Assembly (NCBI GenBank): GCA_005893275.1
Contig: VBOW01000020.1
Span: forward strand, 23,870 to 87,869
DNA: 64,000 nt
DNA from: Candidatus Eiseniibacteriota bacterium
Lineage (GTDB): Bacteria; Eisenbacteria; RBG-16-71-46; SZUA-252
Direction of reading: 5' to 3'
Shown: positions 2,405 through 18,791 of the stretch, in pieces
Layout: every line of letters begins with the position of its first letter
Position numbering within the stretch: position 1 is the first letter of the stretch
The notes under the pieces: generated by a model
What the model was told of the DNA's origin: nothing
Database searches by the model: none
The model's input: the letters and a program-made list of their open reading frames with translations, nothing else
Translations under genes and position numbers: made by a program

Positions 2405-2916
2405 GCATGATCCCGGTCCGCGTGGGCGGCCTCGCGATTGATGAGCGCACCAAGAGCCCGGTGGTCCTCTTGCAGGAGATCGAGGGCAACCGGGTGCTTC
2501 CCATCTGGATCGGCCCCATGGAAGCGAGCGCCATTCACATGGAGCTTCTCGGCAAGAAATACCAGCGTCCCCTCACGCACGATCTCATGATCAACATTCT
2601 CGAGGGATTGAACGCCAAGGTATCGCGCGTGGTCATCACCGACCTCAAGGACAGCACGTTTTTCGCCAACATCTATGTCGACGGCGGCACGGGTGCCGTC
2701 GCGGTCGACGCCCGTCCAAGCGACTCCATCGCGATCGCGCTGCGATCGCGGGCGCCCATTTTCATCATGGACAAGCTCTTCGAGAAATCGGTCGCGGAGA
2801 ACATCGCCCCGCCCAAGACCGAGAGGACGGCCGAGGAGAAAGCCGAGGAGCTGAGGAAGTATCTCGAGGGGCTCAATCCGGAAGATTTCGGCAAATTCAA
2901 TCCCGAGGAGCTATAG
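2401..2916 (+). CDS. Bifunctional nuclease (BFN/DUF151) domain protein
   Basis: MSMIPVRVGGLAIDERTKSPVVLLQEIEGNRVLPIWIGPMEASAI...ARPSDSIAIALR matches the BFN domain. The ATG at 2401 is in frame within the longer track ORF, whose upstream part is overlap with the previous gene. Confidence 0.7.
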   Translation: MSMIPVRVGGLAIDERTKSPVVLLQEIEGNRVLPIWIGPMEASAIHMELLGKKYQRPLTHDLMINILEGLNAKVSRVVITDLKDSTFFANIYVDGGTGAVAVDARPSDSIAIALRSRAPIFIMDKLFEKSVAENIAPPKTERTAEEKAEELRKYLEGLNPEDFGKFNPEEL

Positions 2917-2926
2917 GCTCCCGGGC

Positions 2927-3463
2927 GTGGTCACCCGACCTCTCATCGCGGCCTTTCGGGGAATCTCGCCCAGGATTCCGGCGTCCGCATTCATCGCGCC
3001 CACCGCAACCGTGGTGGGCGACGTCGTTTTGGGGGAGGAGGCGAGCCTCTGGTACGGCGCGGTCGTCCGCGGGGACGTGGGAGCGATCCGAATCGGCTCG
3101 AGGAGCAACATTCAGGATGGATGCGTCCTGCACGTCACGGGCGGGGGCCAACCGCTTGTCGTGGGCGCGGAGGTGACGGTGGGGCATCGGGCGATCCTGC
3201 ATGGGGCGACCGTCGAGGATCGCTGTCTGATCGGTATGGGCTCCGTGCTGCTGGACGGCTGTGTGATCGGAGAGGAATCTCTGGTGGCCGCAGGCAGCAT
3301 CGTGCTCGAGGGCACCCGGGTCCCGCCCCGCTCCTTCGTCGCGGGGGTCCCCGCCCGGATCAAAGGACCCATTCCCGATGCCGTGCACGCGCGTCTCCGG
3401 GAATCCGCGGAAGGCTACGTCCGTCTCGCGCGCGAACACGCCGGGGTGCGCGATGCGGGCTGA
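2927..3463 (+). CDS. Gamma-carbonic anhydrase family / hexapeptide-repeat (PaaY/YrdA-like) protein
   Basis: SAFIAPTATVVGDVVLGEEASLWYGAVVRGDVGAIRIGSRSNIQDGCVLHV shows a left-handed beta-helix hexapeptide repeat and conserved His. Confidence 0.8.
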   Translation: MVTRPLIAAFRGISPRIPASAFIAPTATVVGDVVLGEEASLWYGAVVRGDVGAIRIGSRSNIQDGCVLHVTGGGQPLVVGAEVTVGHRAILHGATVEDRCLIGMGSVLLDGCVIGEESLVAAGSIVLEGTRVPPRSFVAGVPARIKGPIPDAVHARLRESAEGYVRLAREHAGVRDAG

Positions 3464-4874
3464 GGGCCGCTCGGCGGCCGGCGCTCTCCTCGGGCTGGGG
3501 TTCTGCCTGGCGCTCGCGGTCGCTCTGCCCATCCGCCCCGCCGGGAGCGAAACGGCCGAGAAACGCTACCCCTCGAGCAAGGCGGCGGAATTGAAAGCCC
3601 GGCTGCTCGACCGCCCCGCCGCGGCCGAAGCGCCGTCCTGGGCGGCGCAGTACGTGGTCCAACCCGAAATCGACCGGCTCGACCCGGTCGCGCGGGCCGC
3701 GGAGCGAATCTGGGCCGCGCGGGTCGGTCTCGCCGCTGGGGCGCGGGGCGCCGAGCAGAAAAAGCTGCGCCAGATCCTGGCCTCCATGGAGGAGTGCCCA
3801 CTCGACTCCCTCGCGCTCCGGCGGGCGGCCAGCGGCTTGGTCCGGATCGGTGTGGTGATCCCGCTCACGGGCCGTTTCGACCGCTACGGGAAGACGTTCG
3901 TCCAGGGCCTTCGGCTCGCCATGGAGGAGCACAATCGCGAGTGGGCGCCCAACCTCGCTCTCATCCTCCACGATTCCGAAGGAGACCCGCTCGTCGGTGC
4001 GCGCAAGGCGCGGTGGCTTCTTCGCGATCACGGCGTCTCGGTGATTATCGGGGAGCTGTTCAGCGCCAACACCGCTCCATTGGCGGCCGCGAGCCAAGTC
4101 GTGGGCGCGGTGCTGGTATCGCCATCGGCGACGAACGAACGGCTTGCGATCCTGGGGGACGCGGTTTTTCAGCTCCATCTTGGAAACGGGGTCCTGGCGC
4201 AGGCGCTGTCGCGGGCCCTCGCCAAGGATGCGCCGAAAAGCGCCGTGGGGCTCCTCGTCGCGGACACCCCTGAGGATTCCGCCAAAGCGGCGGCATTGCT
4301 CCCCTCGTGCAAGACCGCCGGCGTGGAGGTGGCGGGCACGGAGGTCATTGCGGAGAACGCGGTCGATCTGACCCGGGCGATCGCCTCGCTGCGCGAGAAG
4401 CACGCGGATGCGCTCGTTCTCCTGGTCCCGCCGCGTCTCGCCGGCATCGCCGCGGCGCAGCTCCCCACGGCCTGGCCCAAAGCGCGGGTCTTCGGACTCG
4501 ACGACCTGGACCCTGCGGGGCTCAACGCCGAGGCCCGGGCGGCGCTCGAGGGGGCGACGTATTTCGCGGCGGACTACGTGATGACCGGGGCACCGCAGGA
4601 CTCTTTCGAGACCCGATACAAGCACGCCTACGGTGAGCCGCCGACCCGGATGTCGGTCCGCGGGTACCTCGTCGGCCTCTCGGTCACCCGAGGCATCGAG
4701 CGTGGAAGCTTGAACGCCTCCATGTTGCGCGAGGCCCTCCGGGCGCAGCTCTACGATAGCGACGAGGGCCGCGCGCTTCGTGCCCTTCGCCCGCTGGTCC
4801 CCGCCGAGCCGGAGCGGTTCGTCATACGGGCAGGTAAGGCGACACAGGTGAGTCAGAATCCGCTATCCCCTTGA
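3453..4874 (+). CDS. Periplasmic binding protein type-1 (Leu/Ile/Val-binding-like) substrate-binding protein with ~130-aa N-terminal extension
   Basis: Signal-peptide-like MRAEGRSAAGALLGLGFCLALAVA. PBP1 fold starts at LVRIGVVIPLTGRFDRYGKTFVQGLRLAMEEHN. ATG at 3453 overlaps the upstream stop. Confidence 0.6.
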   Translation: MRAEGRSAAGALLGLGFCLALAVALPIRPAGSETAEKRYPSSKAAELKARLLDRPAAAEAPSWAAQYVVQPEIDRLDPVARAAERIWAARVGLAAGARGAEQKKLRQILASMEECPLDSLALRRAASGLVRIGVVIPLTGRFDRYGKTFVQGLRLAMEEHNREWAPNLALILHDSEGDPLVGARKARWLLRDHGVSVIIGELFSANTAPLAAASQVVGAVLVSPSATNERLAILGDAVFQLHLGNGVLAQALSRALAKDAPKSAVGLLVADTPEDSAKAAALLPSCKTAGVEVAGTEVIAENAVDLTRAIASLREKHADALVLLVPPRLAGIAAAQLPTAWPKARVFGLDDLDPAGLNAEARAALEGATYFAADYVMTGAPQDSFETRYKHAYGEPPTRMSVRGYLVGLSVTRGIERGSLNASMLREALRAQLYDSDEGRALRALRPLVPAEPERFVIRAGKATQVSQNPLSP

Positions 4875-6185: not shown

Positions 6186-7094
6186 GTGCAGGAGTTTTTT
6201 CAGCAGCTTGCGAACGGCGTCGCCTGGGGAAGCATCTATGCTCTGATCGCGCTCGGGTACACCATGGTCTACGGGATCCTGCGCCTCATCAACTTTGCGC
6301 ACGGCGACGTGTACATGGTGGGGGCGTTCGCGGCCTATTTCCTGGCCCGCGCGCTGGGCGTCGGGACCGTCGTGAGCGCCTCGCCGCTCGTCGCCGCCGC
6401 GGTCCTCCTGGGTTCGATGGCGGCCTGCGCGGGGCTCGGGGTCCTGATCGAGCTCTTCGCCTACCGCCCGGTCCGCCGGTCTTCCAGGCTCACGGCCCTC
6501 ATCACGGCCATCGGGGTCTCGCTCTTCCTCGAGAACGCCGGCATCCGTTTCTTCGGCGCCGATCCGAAGTTCTTCCCGCAAGTGATCGCTCCCCGCACCA
6601 TCGCCCTCGCGGAGGGTGTCATCGTGACCAACCATCAGATCATGGTGGTTCTGGTCTCGGTGCTTCTCATGGTGGCGCTCACGCTCTTCATCCAGCGGAC
6701 CCGCACCGGGAAGGCCATGCGGGCCGTCTCCTTCAACCGGGATGCCGCGAGCCTCATGGGCATCCCGGTCGATCGAATCATCACCATCACCTTCGCCATC
6801 GGTTCGGCGCTGGCCGCGGCGGCGGGATTCCTGGTGGGGCTCACGAACCCCAAGATCGAGCCTTTGATGGGCATCATGCCCGGCGTGAAGGCGTTCGTCG
6901 CGGCGGTGCTCGGCGGAATCGGGAGCATTCCCGGGGCCATGATCGGCGGGCTGGTGATGGGGATCTCCGAGTATCTGGTGGTGGGCTACCTCTCCTCCAG
7001 CTACCGCGACGCGATCGCTTTCGTGATCCTGATCATCGTGCTCTTGATCAAGCCGACCGGCCTCCTGGGTCGGAACGTGGCGGAGAAGGTGTGA
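6186..7094 (+). CDS. livH: Branched-chain amino acid ABC transporter permease
   Basis: IYALIALGYTMVYGILRLINFAHGDVYMVGAF is the LivH signature. Multi-TM. Confidence 0.9.
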   Translation: MQEFFQQLANGVAWGSIYALIALGYTMVYGILRLINFAHGDVYMVGAFAAYFLARALGVGTVVSASPLVAAAVLLGSMAACAGLGVLIELFAYRPVRRSSRLTALITAIGVSLFLENAGIRFFGADPKFFPQVIAPRTIALAEGVIVTNHQIMVVLVSVLLMVALTLFIQRTRTGKAMRAVSFNRDAASLMGIPVDRIITITFAIGSALAAAAGFLVGLTNPKIEPLMGIMPGVKAFVAAVLGGIGSIPGAMIGGLVMGISEYLVVGYLSSSYRDAIAFVILIIVLLIKPTGLLGRNVAEKV

Positions 7095-8080
7095 GCCCGG
7101 CGCGCGGGTTGATCGGGACGGTCGCGGCGATCGCTCTCGTCTGGGGGATCGACTGGGTCGGCTCCCGGGTGCTGAATCCGTACATCTACCGGGTCCTCGT
7201 TCTCTGCTCGATCAACGTCATCCTGGCGCTGAGCCTGAATCTCGTGAACGGGATCACGGGGCAATTTTCGATCGGCCACGCGGGATTCATGGCGGTGGGC
7301 GCCTACGCCTCGGCTGCGTACACCGTGTACGCCGTTCCCCTGATGCTCGGGGCCCAGGGCTCGGCGGGCGGTTGGGTGACCGCGGCGGCGTTTCTTCTCG
7401 CGATCCTCGTCGGCGGGCTCGCGTCGGCGGTGGCGGGCTTCCTGGTCGGGCTCCCTTCGATGAGGCTTCGGGGGGATTATCTCGCGATCGTGACGCTCGG
7501 GTTCGGCGAGATCATCCGCGTGGTGATCCTGAATATCGACGCCGTGGGGGGCGCGCGAGGCTTCGCGGGCGTTCCGCAGCGCACGAGCCTCGCCTGGGTG
7601 CTCGGGGGCGCCTGGCTCACGTTCGCGCTGATCCGGAATCTCATGAGGTCCTATCACGGACGCGCCCTCCTCGCGATCCGCGAGGACGAGATCGCCGCGG
7701 AGGCCCTCGGCGTGCCCACGACGCGGTACAAGATCACCGCGTTCGTGATCGGGGCCTTCTTCGCGGGGATGGCGGGGGCGCTCTTCTCCCACTACACCTA
7801 CCTCCATACGAACAGCTTCACGTTCATGAAATCGATCGAGGTCATCATCATGGTCGTCCTGGGCGGGATGGGGAGTCTGACCGGATCGATTCTGGGGGCG
7901 ATCCTCCTGACCGCGCTCCCGGAGCTTCTTCGATTCGCGAGCGCCGAACGGCTCATCATCTACTCACTGCTTCTGATCCTGCTCATGATCGCACGTCCCC
8001 AGGGAATCCTGGGCCGCCGCGAAGTGTCCTTCCGGGCGTGGTTCCCGCGCCGCCGCTCGCGTCCGACCCCGGCGACATGA
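7091..8080 (+). CDS. livM: Branched-chain amino acid ABC transporter permease
   Basis: Second permease of the liv operon. Polytopic. 4-nt overlap with livH. Confidence 0.85.
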   Translation: MSPARGLIGTVAAIALVWGIDWVGSRVLNPYIYRVLVLCSINVILALSLNLVNGITGQFSIGHAGFMAVGAYASAAYTVYAVPLMLGAQGSAGGWVTAAAFLLAILVGGLASAVAGFLVGLPSMRLRGDYLAIVTLGFGEIIRVVILNIDAVGGARGFAGVPQRTSLAWVLGGAWLTFALIRNLMRSYHGRALLAIREDEIAAEALGVPTTRYKITAFVIGAFFAGMAGALFSHYTYLHTNSFTFMKSIEVIIMVVLGGMGSLTGSILGAILLTALPELLRFASAERLIIYSLLLILLMIARPQGILGRREVSFRAWFPRRRSRPTPAT

Positions 8081-8847
8081 GCGAGTCCCTCCTTTCGCTG
8101 CGCCGGCTCGGGGTCACGTTCGGAGGGCTCAAGGCCGTTTCGAACCTCGACTACGACCTTCCGCGCGGGATGCTGGGCGGATTGATCGGCCCGAACGGCG
8201 CGGGGAAAACCACGGTCTTCAACGTGATCACCGGCGTCTATCGGCCGACCGAGGGAACGATCCTTCTCGAGGGGAAACCGATCCAGGGGCGTCCGACCAA
8301 CGTGATCGCCCGGCGCGGAGTGGCGCGCACGTTCCAGAATCCGCGCCTCTTTTCGGATTTGACGTGCGTCGACAATGTACGCATCGCGTGCCACCTCCAT
8401 TGCGGCACGGCCCTCGCCGACAGCATGCTCGCCACCTCCCGGTCGGCGCTCGAAGAGAGGGACATCCTGAGACGATCGGAGGAGCTGCTCGACTCCTTCG
8501 GGCTCACCAAGTACCGGGACAGTGAGGCCCGAAGCCTTCCCTACGGGGAGCAGCGACGGCTCGAGATCGCCCGCACACTGGCGACCGAGCCGAAGCTGCT
8601 CCTGCTCGACGAGCCCGCCGCGGGGATGAACCCCCAGGAGACGGAAGCGCTGATGCGGCTGGTTCACGACGTCCGGGACCGGTACGGTCTCACGGTTCTC
8701 CTGATCGAGCACGACATGAAAGTGGTCATGGGAATTTGCGAGAAGATCGCGGTGCTGGACTATGGCGAGAAGATCGCAGAAGGAACTCCGGAGGAGATCC
8801 GCCGGAACCCGAAGGTGATCGAGGCGTACCTGGGGGAGGAGCCATGA
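8077..8847 (+). CDS. livG: Branched-chain amino acid ABC transporter ATP-binding protein
   Basis: Walker A GPNGAGKTT and ABC signature. ATG at 8077 overlaps the livM stop (ATGA). The longer track ORF 7372-8847 is an out-of-context 5' extension. Confidence 0.9.
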   Translation: MSESLLSLRRLGVTFGGLKAVSNLDYDLPRGMLGGLIGPNGAGKTTVFNVITGVYRPTEGTILLEGKPIQGRPTNVIARRGVARTFQNPRLFSDLTCVDNVRIACHLHCGTALADSMLATSRSALEERDILRRSEELLDSFGLTKYRDSEARSLPYGEQRRLEIARTLATEPKLLLLDEPAAGMNPQETEALMRLVHDVRDRYGLTVLLIEHDMKVVMGICEKIAVLDYGEKIAEGTPEEIRRNPKVIEAYLGEEP

Positions 8848-9560
8848 GCCTCCTCGAGCTGGAAGATCTTCACGTCCATTACGGGGCGATCCACGCCCTG
8901 AAGGGGATCTCGATCGCGGTCGAAGAGGGCGGGATCGTCACCCTGGTGGGCGCGAACGGCGCGGGGAAGAGCACGACCCTTCGGGCGATTTCGGGCCTCA
9001 TCAAGCCGAGCGGCGGCGTGATCCGCTTCCGGGGGAAATCGCTCGTGGGAGTGAAGCCCCACGAGATCGTCCGGGCGGGGGTGTCCCACGTCCCCGAAGG
9101 CCGCATCGTATTCGCGAATCTGACGGTGCTCGACAATCTCGAGCTGGGCGCGTATCTGCGGAGGGACCGCGCCGGCTTCCACGAGGACTTGAAGAAAGTC
9201 TTCCGCCTCTTTCCGAGGCTCGAGGAACGGCGCCGCCAGGCGGCGGGCACGTTGAGCGGCGGGGAGCAACAAATGCTGGCGATCGGCCGCGCCCTCATGG
9301 CGAAGCCCACGCTCCTCCTGATGGACGAGCCCTCGCTGGGCCTGGCGCCGATCCTCGTGCGTGAGATTTTCTCGGTGATCCGCGAGATCCGCGCCCACGG
9401 CACCACGATCGTTCTGGTCGAGCAAAACGCCCGCCTCGCGCTCGCGACGGCGGATCAGGGTTACGTGCTCGAGACAGGCTCGGTTCGAATGTCCGATCGC
9501 GCCCAGGCGCTCCTGGAAAGTCCGTTCGTCCAGGCGGCCTACCTGGGCGGACCGGGCTGA
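8844..9560 (+). CDS. livF: Branched-chain amino acid ABC transporter ATP-binding protein
   Basis: MSLLELEDLHVHYGAIHALKGISIAVEEGGIVTLVGANGAGKSTT. ATGA overlap with livG. Confidence 0.9.
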   Translation: MSLLELEDLHVHYGAIHALKGISIAVEEGGIVTLVGANGAGKSTTLRAISGLIKPSGGVIRFRGKSLVGVKPHEIVRAGVSHVPEGRIVFANLTVLDNLELGAYLRRDRAGFHEDLKKVFRLFPRLEERRRQAAGTLSGGEQQMLAIGRALMAKPTLLLMDEPSLGLAPILVREIFSVIREIRAHGTTIVLVEQNARLALATADQGYVLETGSVRMSDRAQALLESPFVQAAYLGGPG

Positions 9561-10990
9561 TGGGAGAGGAGCCCGCCATTCCCAAGCGCCTCGAGCTTCG
9601 ATCGTTGCCCTCGGTCGGCTCCCTGCTCGAATCCAAGGAGATGGCCGAGCTTCAGGGGCTTGCGCCCCGCGGGGTGCTCGTCTCTGCGGCGCGCGAGGCG
9701 ATCGCCGCCGCGCGCTCGGCGATCCGGCGCGCGGGTGGGGCCAAACGGGCTGGCCTTCCCGGGCGCGAGGCCATCCTGCGCGACGCGGTGCGGCGGGTCG
9801 GGGCGGCGGTCCGCCCGGCGTTTCACGCCGTGATCAACGCCACCGGAATCGTCCTCCATACGAACCTCGGACGTGCCGCGCTGGCGGAGGAGGCGGTTTC
9901 CGCCGTGGCCGAGGCCGCGCGGCGCTATACCAATCTGGAGCTCGACTTGGAGAGCGGGTCGCGCGGCTCGCGGATGGCGCATCTGGAACCGCTTGTCACC
10001 GAGCTTCTGGGCGCCGAGGCTGCGCTCGTCGTGAACAACAACGCGGCCGCGATGCTCCTCGCGCTGAACACCTTCTCCCTCGGCAAGGAGGCAATCGTCT
10101 CGCGCGGGCAGCTGGTCGAGATCGGCGGCTCCTTTCGAATTCCGGAAATCTTGGAGCGGGCGGGGGCCCGACTCCGCGAGGTCGGCACGACCAACAGGAC
10201 CCGTCTCCGCGACTACGAGCGCGCCATCGGCCCCGAAACCGGGATGCTCCTCCGTGTCCACCCGAGCAATTTCGCGATGATAGGTTTCACGGAGGAGGTC
10301 ACGCGGGAAGAGCTTACCGCGTTGAGCCGGAAGAAACGGCTGCCGCTCCTCGAGGATATCGGAAGCGGCGCGCTCATCGATTTCGGGCGATGGGGGTTGC
10401 CGGCGGAGCCGATCGCGCGCGAGGCCCTCGCGCAGGGCATGCCGCTTATTTGCTTCAGCGGCGACAAATTGCTCGGGGGCCCCCAGGCAGGAATCCTCGC
10501 GGGGCGAAGGGGTCTCGTCGCGTCGCTCAAGGCAAATCCTCTATCGCGCGCGCTCCGCGTGGACAAGCTCACGCTGGCGGCCCTGGAGGCGACCCTTCGT
10601 CTTTACCGCGATCCCGAGAAGCTCGCGGCCTCGATTCCAACCCTGCGCATGCTCGCCGAGCCCGCTGCGAGCGTCCGGGCGCGCGCCAAGGCGGTGCTTC
10701 GGGCGATCGGAGCGGATCGCGCTTCTCACAACCGCGTGGAGGTGGTAGCCTGCACAACCGAAGTGGGTGGAGGCGCGATGCCGCTCGCCCGCGTTCCCTC
10801 GTACGCCCTGGCGCTGCGTCCCGCGCGGGGCAAGGTCGAGCACCTAGCCCGCTCGCTCCGTACGGGTCCCGAGCCGGTGATTGGTCGGATCGAGTCGGGT
10901 CGGCTCCTTTTGGACCTCCGTACGGTGAGTCGCGGCGAACTTTCCAAGCTCGCCGCCTCGCTGCTGCGCGTGCTCGAGGAGGAACCCTGA
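9560..10990 (+). CDS. selA: L-seryl-tRNA(Sec) selenium transferase
   Basis: Collinear with E. coli SelA over its length. Shared motifs are VINATGIVLHTNLGRA, VVNNNAAAMLLAL, SRGQLVEIGGSFRIPEI, FSGDKLLGGPQAGI (the PLP-binding Lys) and RVDKLTLAALEATLRLY. Confidence 0.85.
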   Translation: MGEEPAIPKRLELRSLPSVGSLLESKEMAELQGLAPRGVLVSAAREAIAAARSAIRRAGGAKRAGLPGREAILRDAVRRVGAAVRPAFHAVINATGIVLHTNLGRAALAEEAVSAVAEAARRYTNLELDLESGSRGSRMAHLEPLVTELLGAEAALVVNNNAAAMLLALNTFSLGKEAIVSRGQLVEIGGSFRIPEILERAGARLREVGTTNRTRLRDYERAIGPETGMLLRVHPSNFAMIGFTEEVTREELTALSRKKRLPLLEDIGSGALIDFGRWGLPAEPIAREALAQGMPLICFSGDKLLGGPQAGILAGRRGLVASLKANPLSRALRVDKLTLAALEATLRLYRDPEKLAASIPTLRMLAEPAASVRARAKAVLRAIGADRASHNRVEVVACTTEVGGGAMPLARVPSYALALRPARGKVEHLARSLRTGPEPVIGRIESGRLLLDLRTVSRGELSKLAASLLRVLEEEP

Positions 10991-11004
10991 CGCCGTCCGC
11001 CGAA

Positions 11005-12624
11005 TTGGAAGTCGAGCGGTATTCCGATCCCCAGAGCTTCGCGCGGGAAGTCAACCTCCCGCTCATCGGCACCGTTCGCGTGACCCCCGTCTTGTCCGGC
11101 GCCCCCGCCTCGACCTTCTTGGAGACCACCGATCGGGAAGGGTTGAGGCCGGCCATCGAGGTCCTGACCCAGACCCGCAAATCGCTCACGCTTCGGTCCC
11201 TCTTTCTGACCGGATTCCCGCACGATCCGGAATTCTTCGCCTCCGGATTGGCGCTCGCCCGCGAATGGAGCCGCCAGGGGCTCAAGGTGGCCGTCGTGGA
11301 CCTTGATTATCGCCACCCGACGGTGGTCCGGCCGCGCCCCGATGCCAACGAGGGCTACGTGGACGCCCTCGAGTACGGCTGCTCCTTTCAGCGGATCGCG
11401 TGGGAGATTGTCGCCGACGGCCTTTGGTTGGTCGGCGCGGGGAGCCACCCTCCCGATGAGGAGCGGTTCGCCGAGCATCCCGACTGGGCCAGGGTCATGC
11501 GGATCTTCTCGTCACGTGTTGACGTGACGCTCTACCTGGCGCCTTTTCTCGACCGAAAGGGGTTTACGGGGCGTCTTTCCAAACGGATGGACGGGGTTCT
11601 CCTCCTCGCTTCGGTCGAGCGGGCGAGCCGGGCCGCCCTCCGGGATGCATTCCTCGAGCTGTGGGGCTCGGACGCGCCGATGATCGGTTGTCTCGGGATC
11701 GCGGTGCCGCATACGCGAGCCCCGAAGGTCGCCGGGGCAGCGGACGCGATCCCGTCGGAGAGCGTGGTAGCGCAGACGGAAATCCGTGCGACCGGAAGCC
11801 CGGAGCGCTCGGGGCCGGAGCGCTCGGGTCCGGAGCGCGCCGGCCCAGCCCCGCGGCGGCCGTCCGCGTCGCCTATGGCTGAGGAATCGAGCGACGTGGC
11901 GCCCCGCGCGCTCGTCACGAAGCTATCCGATGAAGTGAAGCAGGGCCGGCTGCCACCACGCGTGGGAATCCGCCTGAACTCGCGTACCCTGTTTTACGCC
12001 CTCGCGGCCATTCTGGTGCTCGAGGGAGCCTTTGCGATCTACCAGGTGGTGCACCACAGGACGCCCAGGGTCACGGGCGGCGGGGAAACGCTGCCGGCCG
12101 GCACGGAGCCGGTCCTTCCCGCGGATGTCGGCCCCGCAAAACCCCAAAAGGCTCCCCAAGCCGGTGCAACGGGTGCCGGGGTCGAAACCCCCGAGGCGAA
12201 CCGGGCTTCGAACCCAGCGGCCGGCGCGCCCGGCTCGATCGAGGCGACCTCACCGCCCCCGGGTCTCGAGTCGGAGACGCCCGCGCCGGAGACGCACGCC
12301 CCCGCGCCTGCGCCGGAGACGTCCGCCTCCGCGCCCGCGCCATCACCGCCGGCAAGCGCGGGCCAGCCCGGAGCGCCCGAGGCGCGGCCCTATCGCGTCC
12401 ACATCGCCTCGTTCCGTTCCCAGGCCAAGGTCCGCGACATGGTGAAAAGCCTCCGCGCGCGCGGCGTCAGCGCGTGGTACGCGGCCGCCGGCGATCAGCC
12501 GGGCTGGTATCGAGTGTTCGTCGGTCATTACGCAACCCACAGGGAAGCCGAGCGAAAGGCCTCGTGGCTGCTCGATCATGGCCTGGTGGATCGCGCCGTG
12601 GCGTATCCCGACAACGAGAGGTAA
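11005..12624 (+). CDS. Membrane protein: N-terminal degenerate BY-kinase/MinD-like domain (Walker A lost) + TM helix + Pro/Thr/Ala-rich linker + C-terminal SPOR domain
   Basis: Residues LTGFPHDPEFFASGLALAREWSRQGLKVAVVDLDYRHPTV...DGVLLLASVERASRAALRDAF align in order to Wzc/CapB BY-kinase C-domains, but GEGKST is replaced by GFPHDPEF. TM segment LFYALAAILVLEGAFAIYQVV. C-terminal YRVHIASFRSQAKVRDMVKSLRARGVSAWY...YRVFVGHY is a SPOR fold. The start is uncertain: TTG 11005 or GTG 11080. Confidence 0.55.
   Translation: MEVERYSDPQSFAREVNLPLIGTVRVTPVLSGAPASTFLETTDREGLRPAIEVLTQTRKSLTLRSLFLTGFPHDPEFFASGLALAREWSRQGLKVAVVDLDYRHPTVVRPRPDANEGYVDALEYGCSFQRIAWEIVADGLWLVGAGSHPPDEERFAEHPDWARVMRIFSSRVDVTLYLAPFLDRKGFTGRLSKRMDGVLLLASVERASRAALRDAFLELWGSDAPMIGCLGIAVPHTRAPKVAGAADAIPSESVVAQTEIRATGSPERSGPERSGPERAGPAPRRPSASPMAEESSDVAPRALVTKLSDEVKQGRLPPRVGIRLNSRTLFYALAAILVLEGAFAIYQVVHHRTPRVTGGGETLPAGTEPVLPADVGPAKPQKAPQAGATGAGVETPEANRASNPAAGAPGSIEATSPPPGLESETPAPETHAPAPAPETSASAPAPSPPASAGQPGAPEARPYRVHIASFRSQAKVRDMVKSLRARGVSAWYAAAGDQPGWYRVFVGHYATHREAERKASWLLDHGLVDRAVAYPDNER
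11798..11845 (+). repeat. Imperfect 15-nt tandem repeat (x3) CCGGAGCGCTCGGGN inside the SPOR-protein linker, encoding SGPER-SGPER-SGPER
   Basis: Read directly: gcccggagcgctcggg gccggagcgctcggg tccggagcgcgccgg. Confidence 0.6.
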
Positions 12625-12627
12625 CCC

Positions 12628-15600
12628 GTGTTCCTGAAGCGTCTCGACATCCAGGGCTTCAAGTCCTTCCCGCAGCGCATCCGCGTCGACTTCGGTCCGG
12701 GGATCACGTCGGTCGTGGGGCCGAACGGGAGCGGCAAGACCAACATCGTCGAAGCCATCCGCTGGGTGCTGGGCGAACAGAACATGAGGCACCTCCGCGG
12801 CGACACGCTGGAGGACGTGATCTTCACCGGCTCGGCCCAGCGAAAGCCTCTCGGCATGGCCGAGGTGTCGCTCACGATGTTCAACAACCGGGGGGTCCTG
12901 CCCGTCGAGTACACGGAAATCGCGATCTCGCGCCGTACGTTCCGCAACGGACAGAGCGAGTATTTCATCAACAGAAAACCCTGCCGCCTGCGCGACCTGC
13001 GCGACCTCTTTCTGGACACCGGGATGGGCTCCCACGCCTACTCCCTCATCGAACGAGGCATGGTCGACAACGTCCTCTCCGACGAGAGCGGCCACCGGCG
13101 CTTCCTGTTCGAGGAGGCGGCGGGAATCATGCGCTACAAGACCCGAAAGAAGGAGGCGCTCCAAAAGCTCGATCTGACCCTCGCCGATCTGACGCGCGTG
13201 AACGACGTCGTCGCCGAGATCGAGCGCGAGATTCGATCGCTCGCCCGGCAGGTGGGGAAGGCCCGGCGGTTCAATCGTCTGCGCGAGGAGATCAAGACGT
13301 TCGACCTGGGTCTGGCGAAGGAGGACTACGAACGCCTCGCCGGCGCCGGAGGCGCGTTGCACGAGCAGCAGGCCAGGGCCGAAGACCGCCGGGGCTCGCT
13401 CGCGGGCGTGCTCGCCCGGCACGAGGCGGAGCTGGAGCAGCTCAAGCTCGAGCTCCTGAAGCGAGAGGCGGAGGTGCGTCTCGCGCAGGAAGAGCTCGAC
13501 GAGCGCGAAGCGCGCGGCGCGGCGCTCCTGAACGAAGTCGCCGTGCTCCGGGAGCGGCGCGCGGGGCTGCTCGAGAAGCTCGAGCACGCGCGCTCGGAAG
13601 GGGTGCGGCTCAAGGCCAGCTTGGAGGAGCTGAGACGCGCGAAGGAGAAGCTCGAGGAGGAACGAACGCGGCTGGGAGCGGCCCAGGCGGAGAAGGCGCG
13701 CGAGCTACTGGAATTGGATGCGGCGATCGAGGCGATGCTCCCGCAGCTCGAAGCCCGGCGCGAGGCCCTGCGGGAGCGAAAGCAGCTCTCGCTGGATCTG
13801 TTCCAGACCCGCGTGAAGCAGCAAAGCGCCGCGCAGAGCTGGGCGGAGAAGGAGAATGAGCTCACCCGAAAGAAGGGGCAGCTTCTCGAGGAATTGAAGG
13901 CGCTCGAACTCGAGGAGCGGTCGCTTGCCGAAACGCTGGAGGGTATCGGCCGCGCGGCGGACTCCTCCGCCGTGGAGGTGGAGCGGGCGCGCTCGCGCGT
14001 CGAAAGCGAAACCCGCGCGATCGCCGGGATCGAGGAGCAAATCCGCGTCCAGGACGAGTCGGAGAAACGGGCGCGCGAGGAATTTGCGGCGCTCGAATCA
14101 CGCCGCGCCACCCTTCGCGAGCTCAAAGACCGCTACGAGGGCTACGACGAGAGCGTCCGCTCCTTGGTGGCCGGTCCGACCCGCCCCGCGCGGATCCTCG
14201 GGACGGTCGGCGACGTGTTGCACGCCTCCGGCGACTGGCTGGCCGCGCTCGAAGCCTCGCTCGGCGAGGCGGTCCAGTTCATCGTCGCGGAGCGCACGGA
14301 GGCGGCGCTCAAGGCGCTCAAGGCGCTGGAATCGGGCGGCGGAGGCCGCGCGACCTTTATCGCGCTGGACCGGCTTTCCTGGGCCCGCGCCGCCGAGATA
14401 CCGGAGAAGGTGCTCGCGGCGCCGGGCGTCCACGGACTGCTGCTCGAACATGTCCGCTTCGAGCCGGGATTCGTGGCGCTGGCGTCCTTCCTGCTTTCGG
14501 GTGTGGTGGTCGTGGATTCGATCGAGGTCGGGTTGAAGCTCTTGGAACAGCATCGCGAGCTCAGGCTGCACTTCGTGACGCGGCACGGGGAGCACGTTCG
14601 GTCCCCGGGAATTTACCAGGGCGGAGGGGGACCCACGCGCGCGGGCTCGGTCCTGCGCCGCGAGGAGGAGCTGGAGCGGCTCGAAAAGGAGATCACGCGC
14701 TCCTCCGCCGAGCTCAAGACGGCGCTCACGCTCACGGAAACGCTGCGAGGGGGGCGGGTCGAGGCGCAGGCCGCGCTCGAGGACGCGAATCGCGAGCTTC
14801 GGGAAGCCGAGGAAGCCCAGCGCGCCGAGGAGGCGAGGCGCGCCGAGCATGAGATCAGGAAGGAAGCCGCCGTGCGCTCCCAGGCTGCGCTCCACGCGGC
14901 GCTCGGTGCCGTCGAGTCGGAGCTCAAAGCCGCCCTCGCCGAGGCCGAGATCGCCGGGCTCGCGCTCAAGTCCTCGGACGAGGAGCAAGGCCGTCTCGAG
15001 GCGGACGTGGCGCGCGAGGAGGCGGGGATGCGCGAGCTGGAGGAGGAGCGCGCGCGTCTCGGCGCGCGGCACGCGGACCTGCGAATCGAGACGACCCGCG
15101 CGGAGGCCGCCTTCGAGGCAAGCCTCGGCGAGATCGAGCGGATTCGGCTCAGCGCCGAGGAAGCGGAGCGCGAGATCCGCGCGCGAAGCGAAGAAGGGGC
15201 CGAGACGGAACGGCGAATTCGTGAGGCCCAAGAGGAGGGCGAGCGCAAGGAGCGGGATCTGGAGGGGGAGATCGCGCTCAAGGCGGAGAAGGACCGGGCG
15301 GTCCAGGCTTCTCGGGAGCGGTTCGGGGGAGTGAAGGGCGCGGCCGACGATCTCGAGATCAAGGCCCGCGACAGCCGCCGGGAGCTGAACGAGCTGACCG
15401 AACGGCTCCACCGGGCGGAGCTCGAGCACGCCGAGTCCGAATCGGAAATGCGCGTCCTGGTCGAGCGCGTCCGAAACGAGTACGAGCTGGACCTCGCGAC
15501 CTGGACCGAGCCGCCGGCGGGGGTCGCCGCGGGCCCCGGCCCCCTCGCGGAGCTGGAAGATGTGGACTTCGAAGGGGAAGAAGGGCAGGTGTCGGATGAA

Positions 15601-16362
15601 GCGATTGTGACCCGCGCGGTCGAAGGGCCGGGCCCGGGCGCCGGGTCCCCGCCCGCTTCACGCCAGGAACGTCGCGAGCGCCTGCGTCTCTTACAAGAGA
15701 AGCTCCGTTCCCTGGGCCCCGTCAATCTTCTCGCGATGCAGGACTACGAGGAGCGCCGGCAGCGCCTCTCCTTCCTCACCGGCCAGCGCAAGGACCTCGA
15801 CGAGGCGCGGCAGTCGCTCCTCGAGGCGATCCAGAAGATCAACCGGACCGCCTCGGAGCTGTTTCAAAAAACCTTCGGCGAGGTGAACGAGAACTTCCAA
15901 AAGGTGTTCCGCACGCTCTTCGAAGGGGGCGAGGCGGCGCTCACCCTGAGCGGGGACGATCCGCTCGAGGCGGAAATCGAGATCCTCGCGCGCCCGCGCG
16001 GGAAGAAGCCGCAGTCGCTCTCGCTCCTTTCCGGCGGCGAGAAGGCTCTGACCGCGATCGCCCTCCTCTTCGCGATCTATCTGGTCAAGCCCAGCCCCTT
16101 CTGCATCCTCGACGAGGTGGACGCGCCGCTCGACGACGCCAACATCGACCGCTTCGTTCTCCTGCTTCGGGAGTTCAGCCAGAACACCCAGTTCATCGTC
16201 GTGACGCACAACAAGAAGACGATGGAGGTCGCGGACTGCCTCTACGGGGTCACGATGGAGGAGCCGGGTGTCTCGAAGCTGGTCTCCGTCCGCTGGAATA
16301 CCGAAGCGGCTCGCGAATCCGAGCCCGAAGAGGAGCGGGAGTTGGCGCGGGCGGAAACGTAG
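12628..16362 (+). CDS. smc: Chromosome segregation protein SMC
   Basis: MFLKRLDIQGFKSFPQRIRVDFGPGITSVVGPNGSGKTNIVEAIRWVLGEQ. Long coiled coils. C-terminal LSGGEKALTAIALLFAI...DEVDAPLDDAN. 1244 aa. Confidence 0.92.
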   Translation: MFLKRLDIQGFKSFPQRIRVDFGPGITSVVGPNGSGKTNIVEAIRWVLGEQNMRHLRGDTLEDVIFTGSAQRKPLGMAEVSLTMFNNRGVLPVEYTEIAISRRTFRNGQSEYFINRKPCRLRDLRDLFLDTGMGSHAYSLIERGMVDNVLSDESGHRRFLFEEAAGIMRYKTRKKEALQKLDLTLADLTRVNDVVAEIEREIRSLARQVGKARRFNRLREEIKTFDLGLAKEDYERLAGAGGALHEQQARAEDRRGSLAGVLARHEAELEQLKLELLKREAEVRLAQEELDEREARGAALLNEVAVLRERRAGLLEKLEHARSEGVRLKASLEELRRAKEKLEEERTRLGAAQAEKARELLELDAAIEAMLPQLEARREALRERKQLSLDLFQTRVKQQSAAQSWAEKENELTRKKGQLLEELKALELEERSLAETLEGIGRAADSSAVEVERARSRVESETRAIAGIEEQIRVQDESEKRAREEFAALESRRATLRELKDRYEGYDESVRSLVAGPTRPARILGTVGDVLHASGDWLAALEASLGEAVQFIVAERTEAALKALKALESGGGGRATFIALDRLSWARAAEIPEKVLAAPGVHGLLLEHVRFEPGFVALASFLLSGVVVVDSIEVGLKLLEQHRELRLHFVTRHGEHVRSPGIYQGGGGPTRAGSVLRREEELERLEKEITRSSAELKTALTLTETLRGGRVEAQAALEDANRELREAEEAQRAEEARRAEHEIRKEAAVRSQAALHAALGAVESELKAALAEAEIAGLALKSSDEEQGRLEADVAREEAGMRELEEERARLGARHADLRIETTRAEAAFEASLGEIERIRLSAEEAEREIRARSEEGAETERRIREAQEEGERKERDLEGEIALKAEKDRAVQASRERFGGVKGAADDLEIKARDSRRELNELTERLHRAELEHAESESEMRVLVERVRNEYELDLATWTEPPAGVAAGPGPLAELEDVDFEGEEGQVSDEAIVTRAVEGPGPGAGSPPASRQERRERLRLLQEKLRSLGPVNLLAMQDYEERRQRLSFLTGQRKDLDEARQSLLEAIQKINRTASELFQKTFGEVNENFQKVFRTLFEGGEAALTLSGDDPLEAEIEILARPRGKKPQSLSLLSGGEKALTAIALLFAIYLVKPSPFCILDEVDAPLDDANIDRFVLLLREFSQNTQFIVVTHNKKTMEVADCLYGVTMEEPGVSKLVSVRWNTEAARESEPEEERELARAET

Positions 16363-16372
16363 ATCCTCGGTC

Positions 16373-17311
16373 GTGCCGTTCCTCGGGAAGATCACCCAGG
16401 GCCTCAAGAAGACCCGCGACGTGCTCTTCGGGCAGGCGGCCGCCGTGTTCCAGCGCGGCCGCGACCTGAGCGCGGAGGACTACGAGGCGCTCGAGACGGC
16501 GCTTCTTCGCGCCGACGTCGGGCCTTCCACGACGGACAAGATCCTCGACGGGGTCAAGCGGCGGCTCCGCGACGCGTCGTTCGCGGGAGACGCGCAGGAG
16601 GCGCTGGGCGCGGAGATCGAAGGGATTCTCGCGGGGGGGAGCGATGAATTGGGTTCGGGCTCAAAGCAACGACCAGCTCCTCGCTCCCTGGACGCGACCC
16701 CCTACGTGATCCTCGTCGTCGGCGTCAACGGATCCGGGAAGACGACGAGCATCGCCAAGCTCGCGAGCCGCTTCAAGGAAGCCGGAGATTCGGTTCTTCT
16801 CGTCGCGTGTGACACCTTTCGGGCCGCGGCGGCGGATCAGCTCGAGGTCTGGGCCGCGCGGGCTCGTGTGGAAATCGTGAAGCAAAGACCGGGGGCCGAC
16901 CCCGCCGCGGTCGCCTTCGACGGAATGGCCCGCGCGAGGACCCGCGGCATCGCGCGCGTTCTGGTCGACACCGCGGGAAGGCTTCACGTGAAGGTCAATC
17001 TCATGGAAGAAGTGAAGAAGATCCGGCGCGTGATCGAGCAGCAGATTCCCGGCGCGCCGCACGAAGTGCTGCTCGTGCTCGACGCGACCACGGGGCAGAA
17101 CGGGGTGAGCCAGGCGCGCGAGTTCCATCACGCGCTCGGCGTCACGGGGCTCGTGCTCGCGAAGCTCGACGGGAGCGCGAAGGGGGGCGTGGTGCTTGCC
17201 ATCGCCGATACGCTCAAGCTTCCGATCCGCTGGGTGGGCGTGGGGGAGGGCATGGGGGATCTCGTGCCCTTCGACGCGGCCGAGTTCGCGCGGGCGCTCG
17301 TCACCCCGTAG
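16373..17311 (+). CDS. ftsY: Signal recognition particle receptor FtsY (short form without acidic A domain)
   Basis: VVGVNGSGKTTSIAKLA, DTFRAAAADQL and DTAGRLH are GTPase motifs of the SRP family. GTG at 16373 lies 11 nt after the smc stop. smc-ftsY synteny is conserved. Confidence 0.85.
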   Translation: MPFLGKITQGLKKTRDVLFGQAAAVFQRGRDLSAEDYEALETALLRADVGPSTTDKILDGVKRRLRDASFAGDAQEALGAEIEGILAGGSDELGSGSKQRPAPRSLDATPYVILVVGVNGSGKTTSIAKLASRFKEAGDSVLLVACDTFRAAAADQLEVWAARARVEIVKQRPGADPAAVAFDGMARARTRGIARVLVDTAGRLHVKVNLMEEVKKIRRVIEQQIPGAPHEVLLVLDATTGQNGVSQAREFHHALGVTGLVLAKLDGSAKGGVVLAIADTLKLPIRWVGVGEGMGDLVPFDAAEFARALVTP

Positions 17312-18791
17312 GGCTCGCGCGCCGCCCCTCGCCTACGGCACCCTCGCCGAACACCACCTGGTTTTTCCCCAGGGATTTCGCCTGGCGGAGATTGACGTTC
17401 GCCCGGTTCCAGAGCTCGTGTGAAATTTTCTCGCGTCCGCCGGCATCCAGCCCGCGCGTGCGGTCGGCGCCGAGCGAGACGTCGGCCGGGAACATGGCCC
17501 CTCCGAGGCTCATCGTGACCCGCACCGCGTTCTCACGCCCCTCCATCGTGGGGACCACGATCGCGAGGTTTTGAATCTTGAGCCTCAGCCGCTCGCAGAT
17601 GTCGCGTGCCTCCGTGGGTGTCGTCTCGGCGCTCAGGATGAGCGCGAATTCCTCGCCCCCCCATCGCGCGACCGTGTCGAAGGGTCTCACGCTCGACGCG
17701 AGCATTTGCGATACGTCGCGGAGGACGGCGTTTCCCGCCTCATAGCCGTAGAGGTCGTTCAGCTGCTTGAAATTGTCGAGATCCCCGATCACGAGCGACA
17801 TCGGCCGGCCTTCGCGATAGGCGCGGGCGATCTCGCGGTCGAGCTGGCGGCCGAAATAGGGCCGATTGTAGACGCCGGTCAGCTCGTCGATCATCACGAG
17901 CATCCCGAGCTTCTTGAGCGTGACAAGAAGGTCGGTCGCATGCTCGGCGACCACGCTCAGGAGCCCCATTCTTTCCTCGGAGAAGAATTCGGGCGTTCGG
18001 CTCCATGCCTCCAAAACATAGAGAAAGGGCGTCCCCGGCTCGCCGACCCGCGCCATCGCGAGCGAGCGAAAACCATCCGGCGGGCTCGGCTGCTCGTACG
18101 GCGCGATCGCGACGTGCATGGTCGCGTCCATCGCTTCCGCATCGATCATGACGCGCACGTATCCCGGCTTTGCCAGATCTTCGACGTAAACGGGAAGGGC
18201 GCGTCGGCCGACCCAATTCTCCGCGATCGTTCGGTTCCACGGCCCCCCCTCGCTCACCGGCTGGGCGTACCGCGTGTCGAAGCCGCGCGCCAGCGAATAG
18301 AGGCGCGTCTCGTCGCATTCGAGGATCTTCGTGGCCGAAAGCTGGATCGTGCGAAGGATATCCGCGGGGTCGGTCTGGAGGTATTCGGCATTGCGCTCGT
18401 CGCGGGTGAAGAGCTTCCGCTCCACCGCAATCAGGTGCGAGATCACCCGGTACAGAAGGCGGCTCCGGGTTTGCCAGTGGGGTTTCGAAGCGCGGACGAG
18501 TTTCTCGTCCCCCGGGGCGCGTCGTTCCGCCGCCGCAAGAAGGAAGGATTCGCCGGAGCCCGGCGTGCGGTACCGGACGTAGGCTTTCCCGTCGCGCTGA
18601 AAGCGGTCGACGCTCTCGAGAAGACCGGCCTCGATCAGCCGCTCTGCAATCTCGTAGGTGATCTCATCCCGGCGACCCGCGTCCAGGTCCCCGAGGGCGA
18701 GGTCGATCGGGCGCTTCCCTTCGAGGGGGGATTCTTCATGAAGGCGGAGCGAGGAAAAAATTGCCGTACGGATGCGCTGGGATTCGTTCAT
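17301..18791 (-). CDS. Diguanylate cyclase, GAF-like N-terminal region + GGDEF domain
   Basis: LTGVYNRPYFGRQLDREI...GDLDNFKQLNDLYGYEAGNAVL...RWGGEEFALIL has an intact GGEEF active site. Confidence 0.85.
   Translation of the reverse strand: MNESQRIRTAIFSSLRLHEESPLEGKRPIDLALGDLDAGRRDEITYEIAERLIEAGLLESVDRFQRDGKAYVRYRTPGSGESFLLAAAERRAPGDEKLVRASKPHWQTRSRLLYRVISHLIAVERKLFTRDERNAEYLQTDPADILRTIQLSATKILECDETRLYSLARGFDTRYAQPVSEGGPWNRTIAENWVGRRALPVYVEDLAKPGYVRVMIDAEAMDATMHVAIAPYEQPSPPDGFRSLAMARVGEPGTPFLYVLEAWSRTPEFFSEERMGLLSVVAEHATDLLVTLKKLGMLVMIDELTGVYNRPYFGRQLDREIARAYREGRPMSLVIGDLDNFKQLNDLYGYEAGNAVLRDVSQMLASSVRPFDTVARWGGEEFALILSAETTPTEARDICERLRLKIQNLAIVVPTMEGRENAVRVTMSLGGAMFPADVSLGADRTRGLDAGGREKISHELWNRANVNLRQAKSLGKNQVVFGEGAVGEGRRASPTG

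Follow-up and report, generated by a model that had tools for sequence, protein, structure and literature searches.

A predicted bacterial tyrosine pseudokinase joined to a SPOR domain and encoded next to smc in Eiseniibacteriota, Krumholzibacteriota and Gemmatimonadota

Genes at the locus and the extent of X

The 64,000-nucleotide (nt) stretch examined here (the window; GenBank assembly GCA_005893275.1, contig VBOW01000020.1, positions 23,870 to 87,869) comes from a Candidatus Eiseniibacteriota bacterium, and carries between selA and the smc-ftsY pair a gene, designated X in the locus comparisons below, for a protein with a kinase-like domain at its N-terminus and a SPOR domain at its C-terminus (Table 1). 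The identity of the three neighbours, as given in the original prediction made from the sequence of the window, was confirmed by Pfam. X is most likely translated from the TTG at 11005, which gives a protein of 539 amino acids (aa) ending at a TAA stop codon (12622-12624). The selA stop codon lies 14 nt ahead of this TTG, and smc begins 3 nt past the X stop codon, with GAGAGG located 7 nt upstream of its GTG. Scans for promoters and terminators across the selA-ftsY region gave nothing above shuffled expectation, a result that is compatible with an operon and is not evidence for one.

Table 1. Coordinates in the window of X, its parts and the adjoining genes
Feature	Coordinates	Strand	Remarks
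selA (selenocysteine synthase)	9560..10990	+	Pfam SelA, E=1.5e-154
X (pseudokinase-SPOR gene)	11005..12624	+	Most likely start TTG
Domain with the fold of bacterial tyrosine kinases (SIMIBI P-loop NTPase), aa 1-233	11005..11703	+	Profile searches, hhalign, Foldseek and models; predicted catalytically dead
N-terminal segment ERYSDPQSFAREVNLPLIGTV	11014..11076	+	Counterpart of the 'activator' peptide (juxtamembrane/CapA C-terminal) found ahead of bacterial tyrosine kinase domains
Degenerate Walker A, TGFPHDPEFFA	11209..11241	+	Replaces TSxxxxEGK(S/T)T
Retained Walker A', KVAVVDLDYRHP (hhhhDxDxRxP; VAVVDLDYRHP)	11284..11319	+	Alignments to CapB and canonical kinases
Family signature EGYVDALEYGCSF (EG-h-h-D-x-h-x-[YFW]-G-x-S)	11350..11388	+	G117, D120, G125 and S127 invariant or nearly so in the family alignment
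Degenerate Walker B, VDVTLYLAPFL	11518..11550	+	Replaces hhhhD(S/T)PP; Asp to Leu (MAFFT alignment)
Cytoplasmic Pro/Ala/Arg/Ser-rich linker, tyrosine-free	11704..11985	+	Holds a 15-nt repeat and the conserved helix ALVTKLSDEVKQG ahead of the transmembrane helix
Single transmembrane helix TLFYALAAILVLEGAFAIYQVV, predicted N-in/C-out	11986..12051	+	Kyte-Doolittle 1.88 over 19 aa; preceding side rich in Arg/Lys
Periplasmic juxtamembrane motif ETLPAGTEPVLPA	12085..12123	+	~12 aa after the transmembrane helix; P..G.E...PA invariant or nearly so in the Eisenbacteria subfamily
Periplasmic Pro/Ala/Gly/Thr/Glu-rich low-complexity linker	12124..12384	+	Carries a 27-nt x2.4 repeat
C-terminal SPOR domain	12385..12621	+	Pfam PF05036, E=1.8e-10, 41.4 bits against a cutoff of 21; aa 466-522 of the frame counted from 10990
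smc	12628..16362	+	Pfam SMC_N and SMC_hinge; conserved downstream partner
ftsY	16268..17311	+	Pfam SRP54, E=3.6e-73; start uncertain

The reading frame of X is open from within selA through 12624, and every sequence block quoted in the original prediction (GFPHDPEF, KVAVVDLDYRHP and DGVLLL) was found in its translation. The start of the gene had been set at 10990; however, this base, with which the selA stop codon ends, opens an ACG and not a start codon, and ahead of the conserved N-terminus TTG 11005 is the one canonical start available. The codon equivalent to TTG 11005 in related Eisenbacteria genomes is ATG in one, TTG in two and CTG in four, and homologous proteins start 2-9 residues ahead of a conserved ERY (5-9 residues for the more distant homologues). 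These homologue starts and the start codons at the equivalent position place the true start no more than ~15 nt from 10990, and the kinase-like region is therefore certainly translated. The N-terminal stretch (ERYxxPxxFAREVNLPLLG) is conserved in the protein alignment and is part of the fold in the structure model.

A 23-nt block, CTCGAGGAGGAACCCTGACGCCG (coordinates 10973-10995), that contains GGAGG and runs from the C-terminal codons of selA (LEEEP) across the stop codon into the first bases of the intergenic space was found to be invariant in eight Eisenbacteria genomes. The proteins encoded by genomes sharing this block are only ~75-90% identical, and the start codon 15 nt downstream of it varies between TTG, ATG and CTG. 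The block may be a translational-coupling or ribosome-binding element, for which the spacing to the TTG (~21 nt) is long.

Fold, catalytic motifs and topology of the X protein

The original prediction had related the N-terminal region to the Wzc/CapB-type tyrosine kinases of bacteria (BY-kinases), and each of the searches that retrieved a fold for this region retrieved that of the BY-kinases. When a profile built from 15 close homologues was run against all PDB sequences, only two matches were obtained at E<=10, and both were to the S. aureus CapA/CapB chimera, in an alignment that begins in the activator peptide and continues through Walker A and Walker A'. The same profile gave 747 matches at E<=1e-3 among 1.84 billion cluster representatives, including classic Wzc-type proteins with Wzz/GNVR domains and an intact GK[ST] (E 1e-9 to 1e-7), and a broader profile of the family matched a JGI 'non-specific protein-tyrosine kinase' at E=3.4e-24. 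Alignment of the family to five canonical BY-kinases using hhalign extended over 219 columns with a probability of 98.8% (E=1.1e-16).

Structure comparison led to the same group of proteins. The top 50 Foldseek matches were all BY-kinases for each of two models of the domain, with TMq ~0.6 for a model built from the family only and ~0.8 for an AlphaFold model built from a deeper alignment (pLDDT 95.2, pTM 0.92), the latter having TM values of 0.83/0.84 to CapA1B1 and ~0.8 to CapAB and Wzc. The alignment behind this second model included canonical kinases and the model is thus not independent of them, but the family-only model returned the same top matches. The N-terminal segment ERYSDPQSFAREVNLPLIGTV, which forms a helix and a strand in the models, aligns with RIKDEEDVEKELGLPVLGSI of the CapA/CapB chimera and with DVEKE(L/V)GLPLLG of canonical kinases.

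Searches of domain family databases were less informative. Of the Pfam families to which the original prediction had pointed, SPOR (PF05036) was found at the C-terminus, but AAA_31 and CbiA were not found, and there was no other Pfam match on the N-terminal region either in X or in any of 15 family members scanned singly. The only kinase-type match in NCBIfam was to TIGR01007 (eps_fam; aa 88-233, E=0.003), at 17.2 bits against a cutoff of 108.05, and neither Pfam nor NCBIfam has a model for the N-terminal domain. The fold is therefore reachable only via profiles and structure. The deviant Walker A motif of ParA/MinD ATPases (KGGxxGK[ST]) was not present in the domain. Taken together, the profile and model comparisons show that the predicted fold of the N-terminal 233 aa is specifically that of a BY-kinase of the Wzc/CapB type, including an activator-like leader, and not that of a generic MinD/ParA protein.

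The motifs of the domain were assigned from a HMMER alignment to CapB and a MAFFT alignment with eight canonical kinases. The loss of Walker A, which the original prediction had proposed, is explicit in these alignments, as the catalytic Lys and the Ser/Thr are each replaced by Phe, though the region is still a strand-loop-helix in the model. The Walker A'-like block that had been described as kept does align with the canonical Walker A', and its D99 hardly varies in the family as a whole. The Asp of Walker B and the C-terminal tyrosine cluster, which had not been considered, were also found to be lost. No Tyr occurs in aa 178-330, whereas the aligned canonical kinases end in YYYY-rich tails. 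In the ExxRxxR ring motif of helix alpha-2, which reads E-V-L-T-Q-T-R, the Glu and the last Arg (R58, invariant) are kept and the middle Arg is replaced by Thr. Mapping of the P-loop position by hidden Markov model coordinates showed that 108 of 131 top representatives carry the domain at the N-terminus and lack GK[ST] at that position, and the few apparent exceptions are stand-alone canonical kinases or have GK[ST] elsewhere in the protein. With the Lys and Ser/Thr of Walker A, the Asp of Walker B and the Tyr-rich tail all missing, the domain falls under the published definition of a BY pseudokinase (PMC12004946), and would therefore not be expected to bind Mg-ATP or to autophosphorylate.

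The single hydrophobic segment of the protein is the transmembrane helix that the original prediction had placed between the two domains, and a transmembrane helix with an N-terminal flank rich in Arg/Lys follows the kinase-like domain in 55 of 55 family members inspected. This basic flank predicts a cytoplasmic kinase-like domain and a periplasmic SPOR domain. Hence the topology, which had been called inverted relative to Wzc, is so in the order of the domains, but not in their sidedness, as the prediction still puts the kinase-like domain in the cytoplasm. The linker between this domain and the transmembrane helix was called disordered. A 15-nt repeat had been assigned to a Pro/Thr/Ala-rich linker following the helix; however, the clean 15-nt tandem repeat found by Tandem Repeats Finder (SPERSGPERSGPERAGP, x2.6, 11800-11838) is in the cytoplasmic linker ahead of the helix, and the repeat in the periplasmic linker (12272-12341) is better described as 27 nt x2.4 (12278-12341), being reported as a 15-mer only in degenerate form. 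The periplasmic juxtamembrane motif, of the type LPxG(T/S)E, was present only in the Eisenbacteria-type subfamilies when the whole family was checked, with a related LPGSDG in a sister subfamily.

Distribution of the family and its linkage to smc

A word-indexed search found only 24 close relatives of X, which are from Candidatus Eisenbacteria wherever the source names the organism. The profile searches extended the family considerably, and showed that this architecture is not private to one genome but is the hallmark of a large family, so far without annotation, that occurs in Eiseniibacteriota, Krumholzibacteriota and Gemmatimonadota, all of its taxa other than Gemmatimonadota being uncultured. 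Named members are from Candidatus Eisenbacteria/Eiseniibacteriota and Candidatus Krumholzibacteria, and a large high-GC subgroup was assigned to Gemmatimonadales by a subgroup profile search; its members are labelled only 'SPOR domain-containing protein' by NCBI. A SPOR domain was detected by Pfam in 49 of the 83 representatives from the family search that were scanned. In some members, for example P0050 (320 aa; locus L006, coordinates 2867-3829), the dead kinase domain and the transmembrane helix are present and SPOR is absent, and the gene overlaps smc by 4 nt.

Within Eisenbacteria the mean column identity of the domain is 73%, and the linkers cannot be aligned. Between subgroups the identity is 17-30%, but the dead P-loop, Walker A' and the signature block are nonetheless common to them, which indicates that the inactive state is ancient and maintained and not the product of recent decay. 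The alignments thus show a predicted inactive domain under strong purifying selection across the three phyla.

The signature block was used as the pattern for a scan of GTDB species-representative genomes, which yielded 51 loci, 42 with enough downstream flank and 41 with enough upstream flank for comparison. An smc gene was found downstream of X in 41 of the 42 under a strict criterion, and in the remaining locus, where X is longer, the SMC C-terminus is encoded further on. A selA gene lies upstream in all 41 (Eisenbacteria/Krumholzibacteria-type loci). The loci in which this context is conserved include some where identity falls to 24-38% for X and to only 36-54% for SMC, and the same X-smc junction, in several cases with a 4-nt overlap, was seen in independent metagenomic contexts of divergent members (X only 22-32% identical). 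In Gemmatimonadales the order is rsfS, a gene for a Tricorn-like protease, a gene for a different SPOR protein, X and smc, with 4-nt stop/start overlaps, and neither selA nor ftsY is present at these X-smc loci. The expectation that the fusion would always neighbour smc-ftsY is therefore borne out for smc, which is also found in every other context examined, but not for ftsY, which does not follow smc in Gemmatimonadales. The other neighbours differ between the phyla and smc is the only invariant one.

The second SPOR protein encoded directly upstream of X in Gemmatimonadales (L062, coordinates 6700-8004; L064, 6964-8004; L065, 6631-8004) overlaps X by 4 nt at the gene level and is unrelated to it, giving no match to the pseudokinase profile. 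Its N-terminal part looks periplasmic and beta-propeller-like, judging from the sequence. The Gemmatimonadales pseudokinase protein itself shows two SPOR matches.

Copies of X with 63-81% identity and the selA-X-smc context were also found in metagenome-assembled genomes (MAGs) labelled Dormiibacterota, Binatia, Latescibacterota, Omnitrophota, Bacteroidota and Acidobacteriota (L010, L012, L016, L023, L024 and L025). All of these except L016 are on contigs that end near the match or are only 2.5-7 kb long, and they are most likely mis-binned Eisenbacteria contigs.

In the window, the GTG assigned to ftsY (16268) has a good GGAGG 7 nt upstream, and overlaps smc by 95 nt; an alternative GTG (16373) is located just past the smc stop codon. 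Downstream of ftsY are a convergent open reading frame (ORF) of 496 aa (17301-18791, minus strand) and an ORF of 771 aa (19611-21926, plus strand). In the syntenic locus L002 the corresponding positions are occupied by a GGDEF-domain gene and by one for a TPR/sigma-54 activator/HTH_8 regulator.

Possible roles of X and comparison with known systems

SPOR domains target septal peptidoglycan that has been processed by amidases, as established for FtsN, DamX, DedD and RlpA. The SPOR domain of X would be expected to bind denuded septal glycan in the same way, so that the protein would gather where the septum constricts, as FtsN, DamX and DedD do. The pseudokinase domain would serve on the cytoplasmic side as a nucleotide-independent protein-protein scaffold, like EcpK and HfsB, and might self-assemble as BY-kinase domains do. 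As X would be co-transcribed and is probably translationally coupled with smc, we infer that its cytoplasmic partner belongs to the chromosome organisation and segregation machinery (SMC-ScpAB or ParB), in which case the protein may couple nucleoid clearing to closure of the septum. On balance, and with about as much confidence as doubt, X is proposed to be a bitopic inner-membrane scaffold that is anchored at the septum, acts independently of nucleotide, is co-expressed with SMC and links chromosome organisation to septation.

There is precedent for several elements of this proposal. BY pseudokinases are thought to act as scaffolds, by contacts between proteins and not by phosphorylation (PMC12004946), and the active BY-kinase CpsD is located at the pneumococcal septum, where it binds ParB and perturbs chromosome segregation (PMC4574921). 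Several points weigh against it, however. Localisation at the septum is predicted by analogy with other members of the SPOR family only, and, as members such as P0050 have no SPOR domain, targeting by this domain is not universal. Adjacency to smc does not prove a physical or functional interaction with SMC. In itself, smc-ftsY is a housekeeping pair found widely, and the three phyla are relatives within the FCB group, so that some of the shared gene order could be a matter of descent. The ExxRxxR motif is only half kept (E-x2-T-x2-R), so that oligomerisation is uncertain.

The main alternative to a scaffold tied to SMC is that X is a plain divisome protein of the FtsN/DamX/DedD type, with an unusually large cytoplasmic domain that contacts divisome proteins such as FtsA, FtsZ or FtsK, and that it sits beside smc because the two are regulated together in the cell cycle or because the gene order was inherited, and not through a functional tie to chromosome segregation. 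This is possible, if somewhat doubtful. The layout of a cytoplasmic part, transmembrane helix, short conserved periplasmic motif, low-complexity linker and SPOR mirrors that of FtsN and DamX, relatives are labelled DedD, DamX or FtsN by JGI, there is another SPOR protein in the same Gemmatimonadales operon, and weak NCBIfam matches to DedD (E=0.0013) and FtsN (E=0.0018) were obtained. However, the equivalog scores are far under their cutoffs (17.9 against 107.65 for FtsN and 19.1 against 150 for DedD), so that orthology to either protein is not supported. Moreover, the X-smc pair, with its stop/start overlaps, persists where all other neighbours differ and X is only 22-30% identical, which is more than passive synteny would predict. 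Much less likely is a role in a polysaccharide pathway, in which X, like EcpK and HfsB, would scaffold a kinase-less polysaccharide co-polymerase of the PCP-2 type encoded elsewhere, with the SPOR domain steering the assembly of capsule or exopolysaccharide to the septum, as for CpsC/CpsD in pneumococcus. The closest relatives of the domain by sequence and structure are indeed polysaccharide BY-kinases, pseudokinases that work with PCP-2 proteins are known (PMC12004946), and CpsD acts at the septum (PMC4574921). This role is nevertheless improbable, as no Wzx, Wzy, PCP, OPX or glycosyltransferase genes were found beside X in the ~60 contexts examined, and a protein with its own activator-like leader and membrane anchor does not need a PCP partner for attachment to the membrane.

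It is also much less likely, and indeed very improbable, that the domain has remained enzymatic, with nucleotide bound at a non-canonical site. The retained and nearly invariant Walker A' (DxD) and the conserved acidic residues D74 and E76, which sit in the former P-loop, would fit such an enzyme, but throughout a family of hundreds of clusters the Lys and Ser/Thr of Walker A, the Asp of Walker B and the phospho-acceptor tyrosines are all missing. That the fusion is an artefact of annotation, with two genes joined by a frameshift or a real start downstream of the kinase-like region, was raised in the original prediction and belongs with these much less likely explanations; its probability is close to negligible. 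The 5' end has no ATG or GTG start close by, some gene callers begin relatives at internal Met or Val codons, and the gene is broken in one long-read assembly. However, the N- and C-terminal parts form one continuous gene in all relatives, with full-length homologues of the same architecture in dozens of genomes from three phyla, and the extreme N-terminus, which is conserved as protein and lies structurally within the fold, puts the kinase-like region inside the gene. In the broken case (locus L002, coordinates 8343-11365, on a 3.1-Mb long-read MAG contig), selA is in two pieces and the pseudokinase gene has a spurious N-terminus beginning MTPSASRPGSPSRGS; the split and the odd N-terminus look like assembly errors of the indel/frameshift type and not real pseudogenes.

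A bolder form of the proposed link between chromosome organisation and septation is that the X family, in a role so far unrecognised, couples division to segregation or marks the division site in Gemmatimonadota, Eiseniibacteriota and Krumholzibacteriota; a ring of dead BY-kinase domains anchored to septal peptidoglycan would bind SMC-ScpAB or ParB and tie chromosome clearing to septum closure. This is unlikely as it stands, though if true it would serve phyla that lack Min, MipZ, PomZ and MapZ. Gemmatimonadota has been reported to have none of the known systems for placing the division site, and orphan ParA-like proteins have been put forward as possible substitutes (PMC11271474). X is a candidate for the coordination of segregation and division in these poorly studied soil phyla, of which Gemmatimonadota, with no known placement system, has cultured species.

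No published description of the fusion or of the family was found in full-text searches combining SPOR with BY-kinase, pseudokinase, ParA-like, SMC or Gemmatimonadota, the coverage of the literature being incomplete, and the view in the original prediction that such a fusion had not been described holds within the searchable literature. The BY-kinase fold and the SPOR domain are both known, and what is new, as far as can be told, is that the two are fused, that the order of the domains is permuted and that the pairing with smc is conserved. BY pseudokinases have been recognised only recently, and solely as helpers of polysaccharide co-polymerases (EcpK and HfsB). A dead domain in a new setting, fused to SPOR and locked to smc in three phyla, extends the known uses of the BY-kinase fold, and a family of unannotated 'SPOR domain-containing proteins' gains a defined cytoplasmic domain.

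Among known systems, MapZ/LocZ of Streptococcus pneumoniae resembles X by analogy only. It is bitopic, and has a domain for interactions in the cytoplasm and, outside the cell, one that binds peptidoglycan and marks the division site (as cited in PMC11271474), but it has no sequence or fold relationship to X and is regulated by StkP phosphorylation. FtsN, DamX and DedD share with X, for which the topology is predicted, a bitopic N-in arrangement, a low-complexity periplasmic linker and a C-terminal SPOR domain, and in the Eisenbacteria subfamily the short conserved periplasmic motif just past the transmembrane helix (ETLPAGTEPVLPA in X) is placed like the essential domain of FtsN. However, the cytoplasmic parts of these proteins are short and unrelated to that of X, and none has a domain of the P-loop fold.

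Compared with the canonical BY-kinases (Wzc, Etk, CapB, BceF, VpsO and CpsD), X has lost Walker A, the Asp of Walker B and the Tyr cluster, and it has no Wzz/GNVR periplasmic domain. The kinase domain of Wzc is C-terminal and follows the second transmembrane helix, whereas the kinase-like domain of X is N-terminal and precedes its helix. EcpK of Myxococcus xanthus and HfsB of Caulobacter crescentus resemble X in that their BY-kinase fold has neither the catalytic residues nor the Tyr-rich tail (PMC12004946). However, they are soluble stand-alone proteins whose genes belong to Wzx/Wzy polysaccharide clusters and which bind a PCP-2 partner at its C-terminus, whereas X has its own activator-like leader, transmembrane helix and SPOR domain and is encoded with smc.

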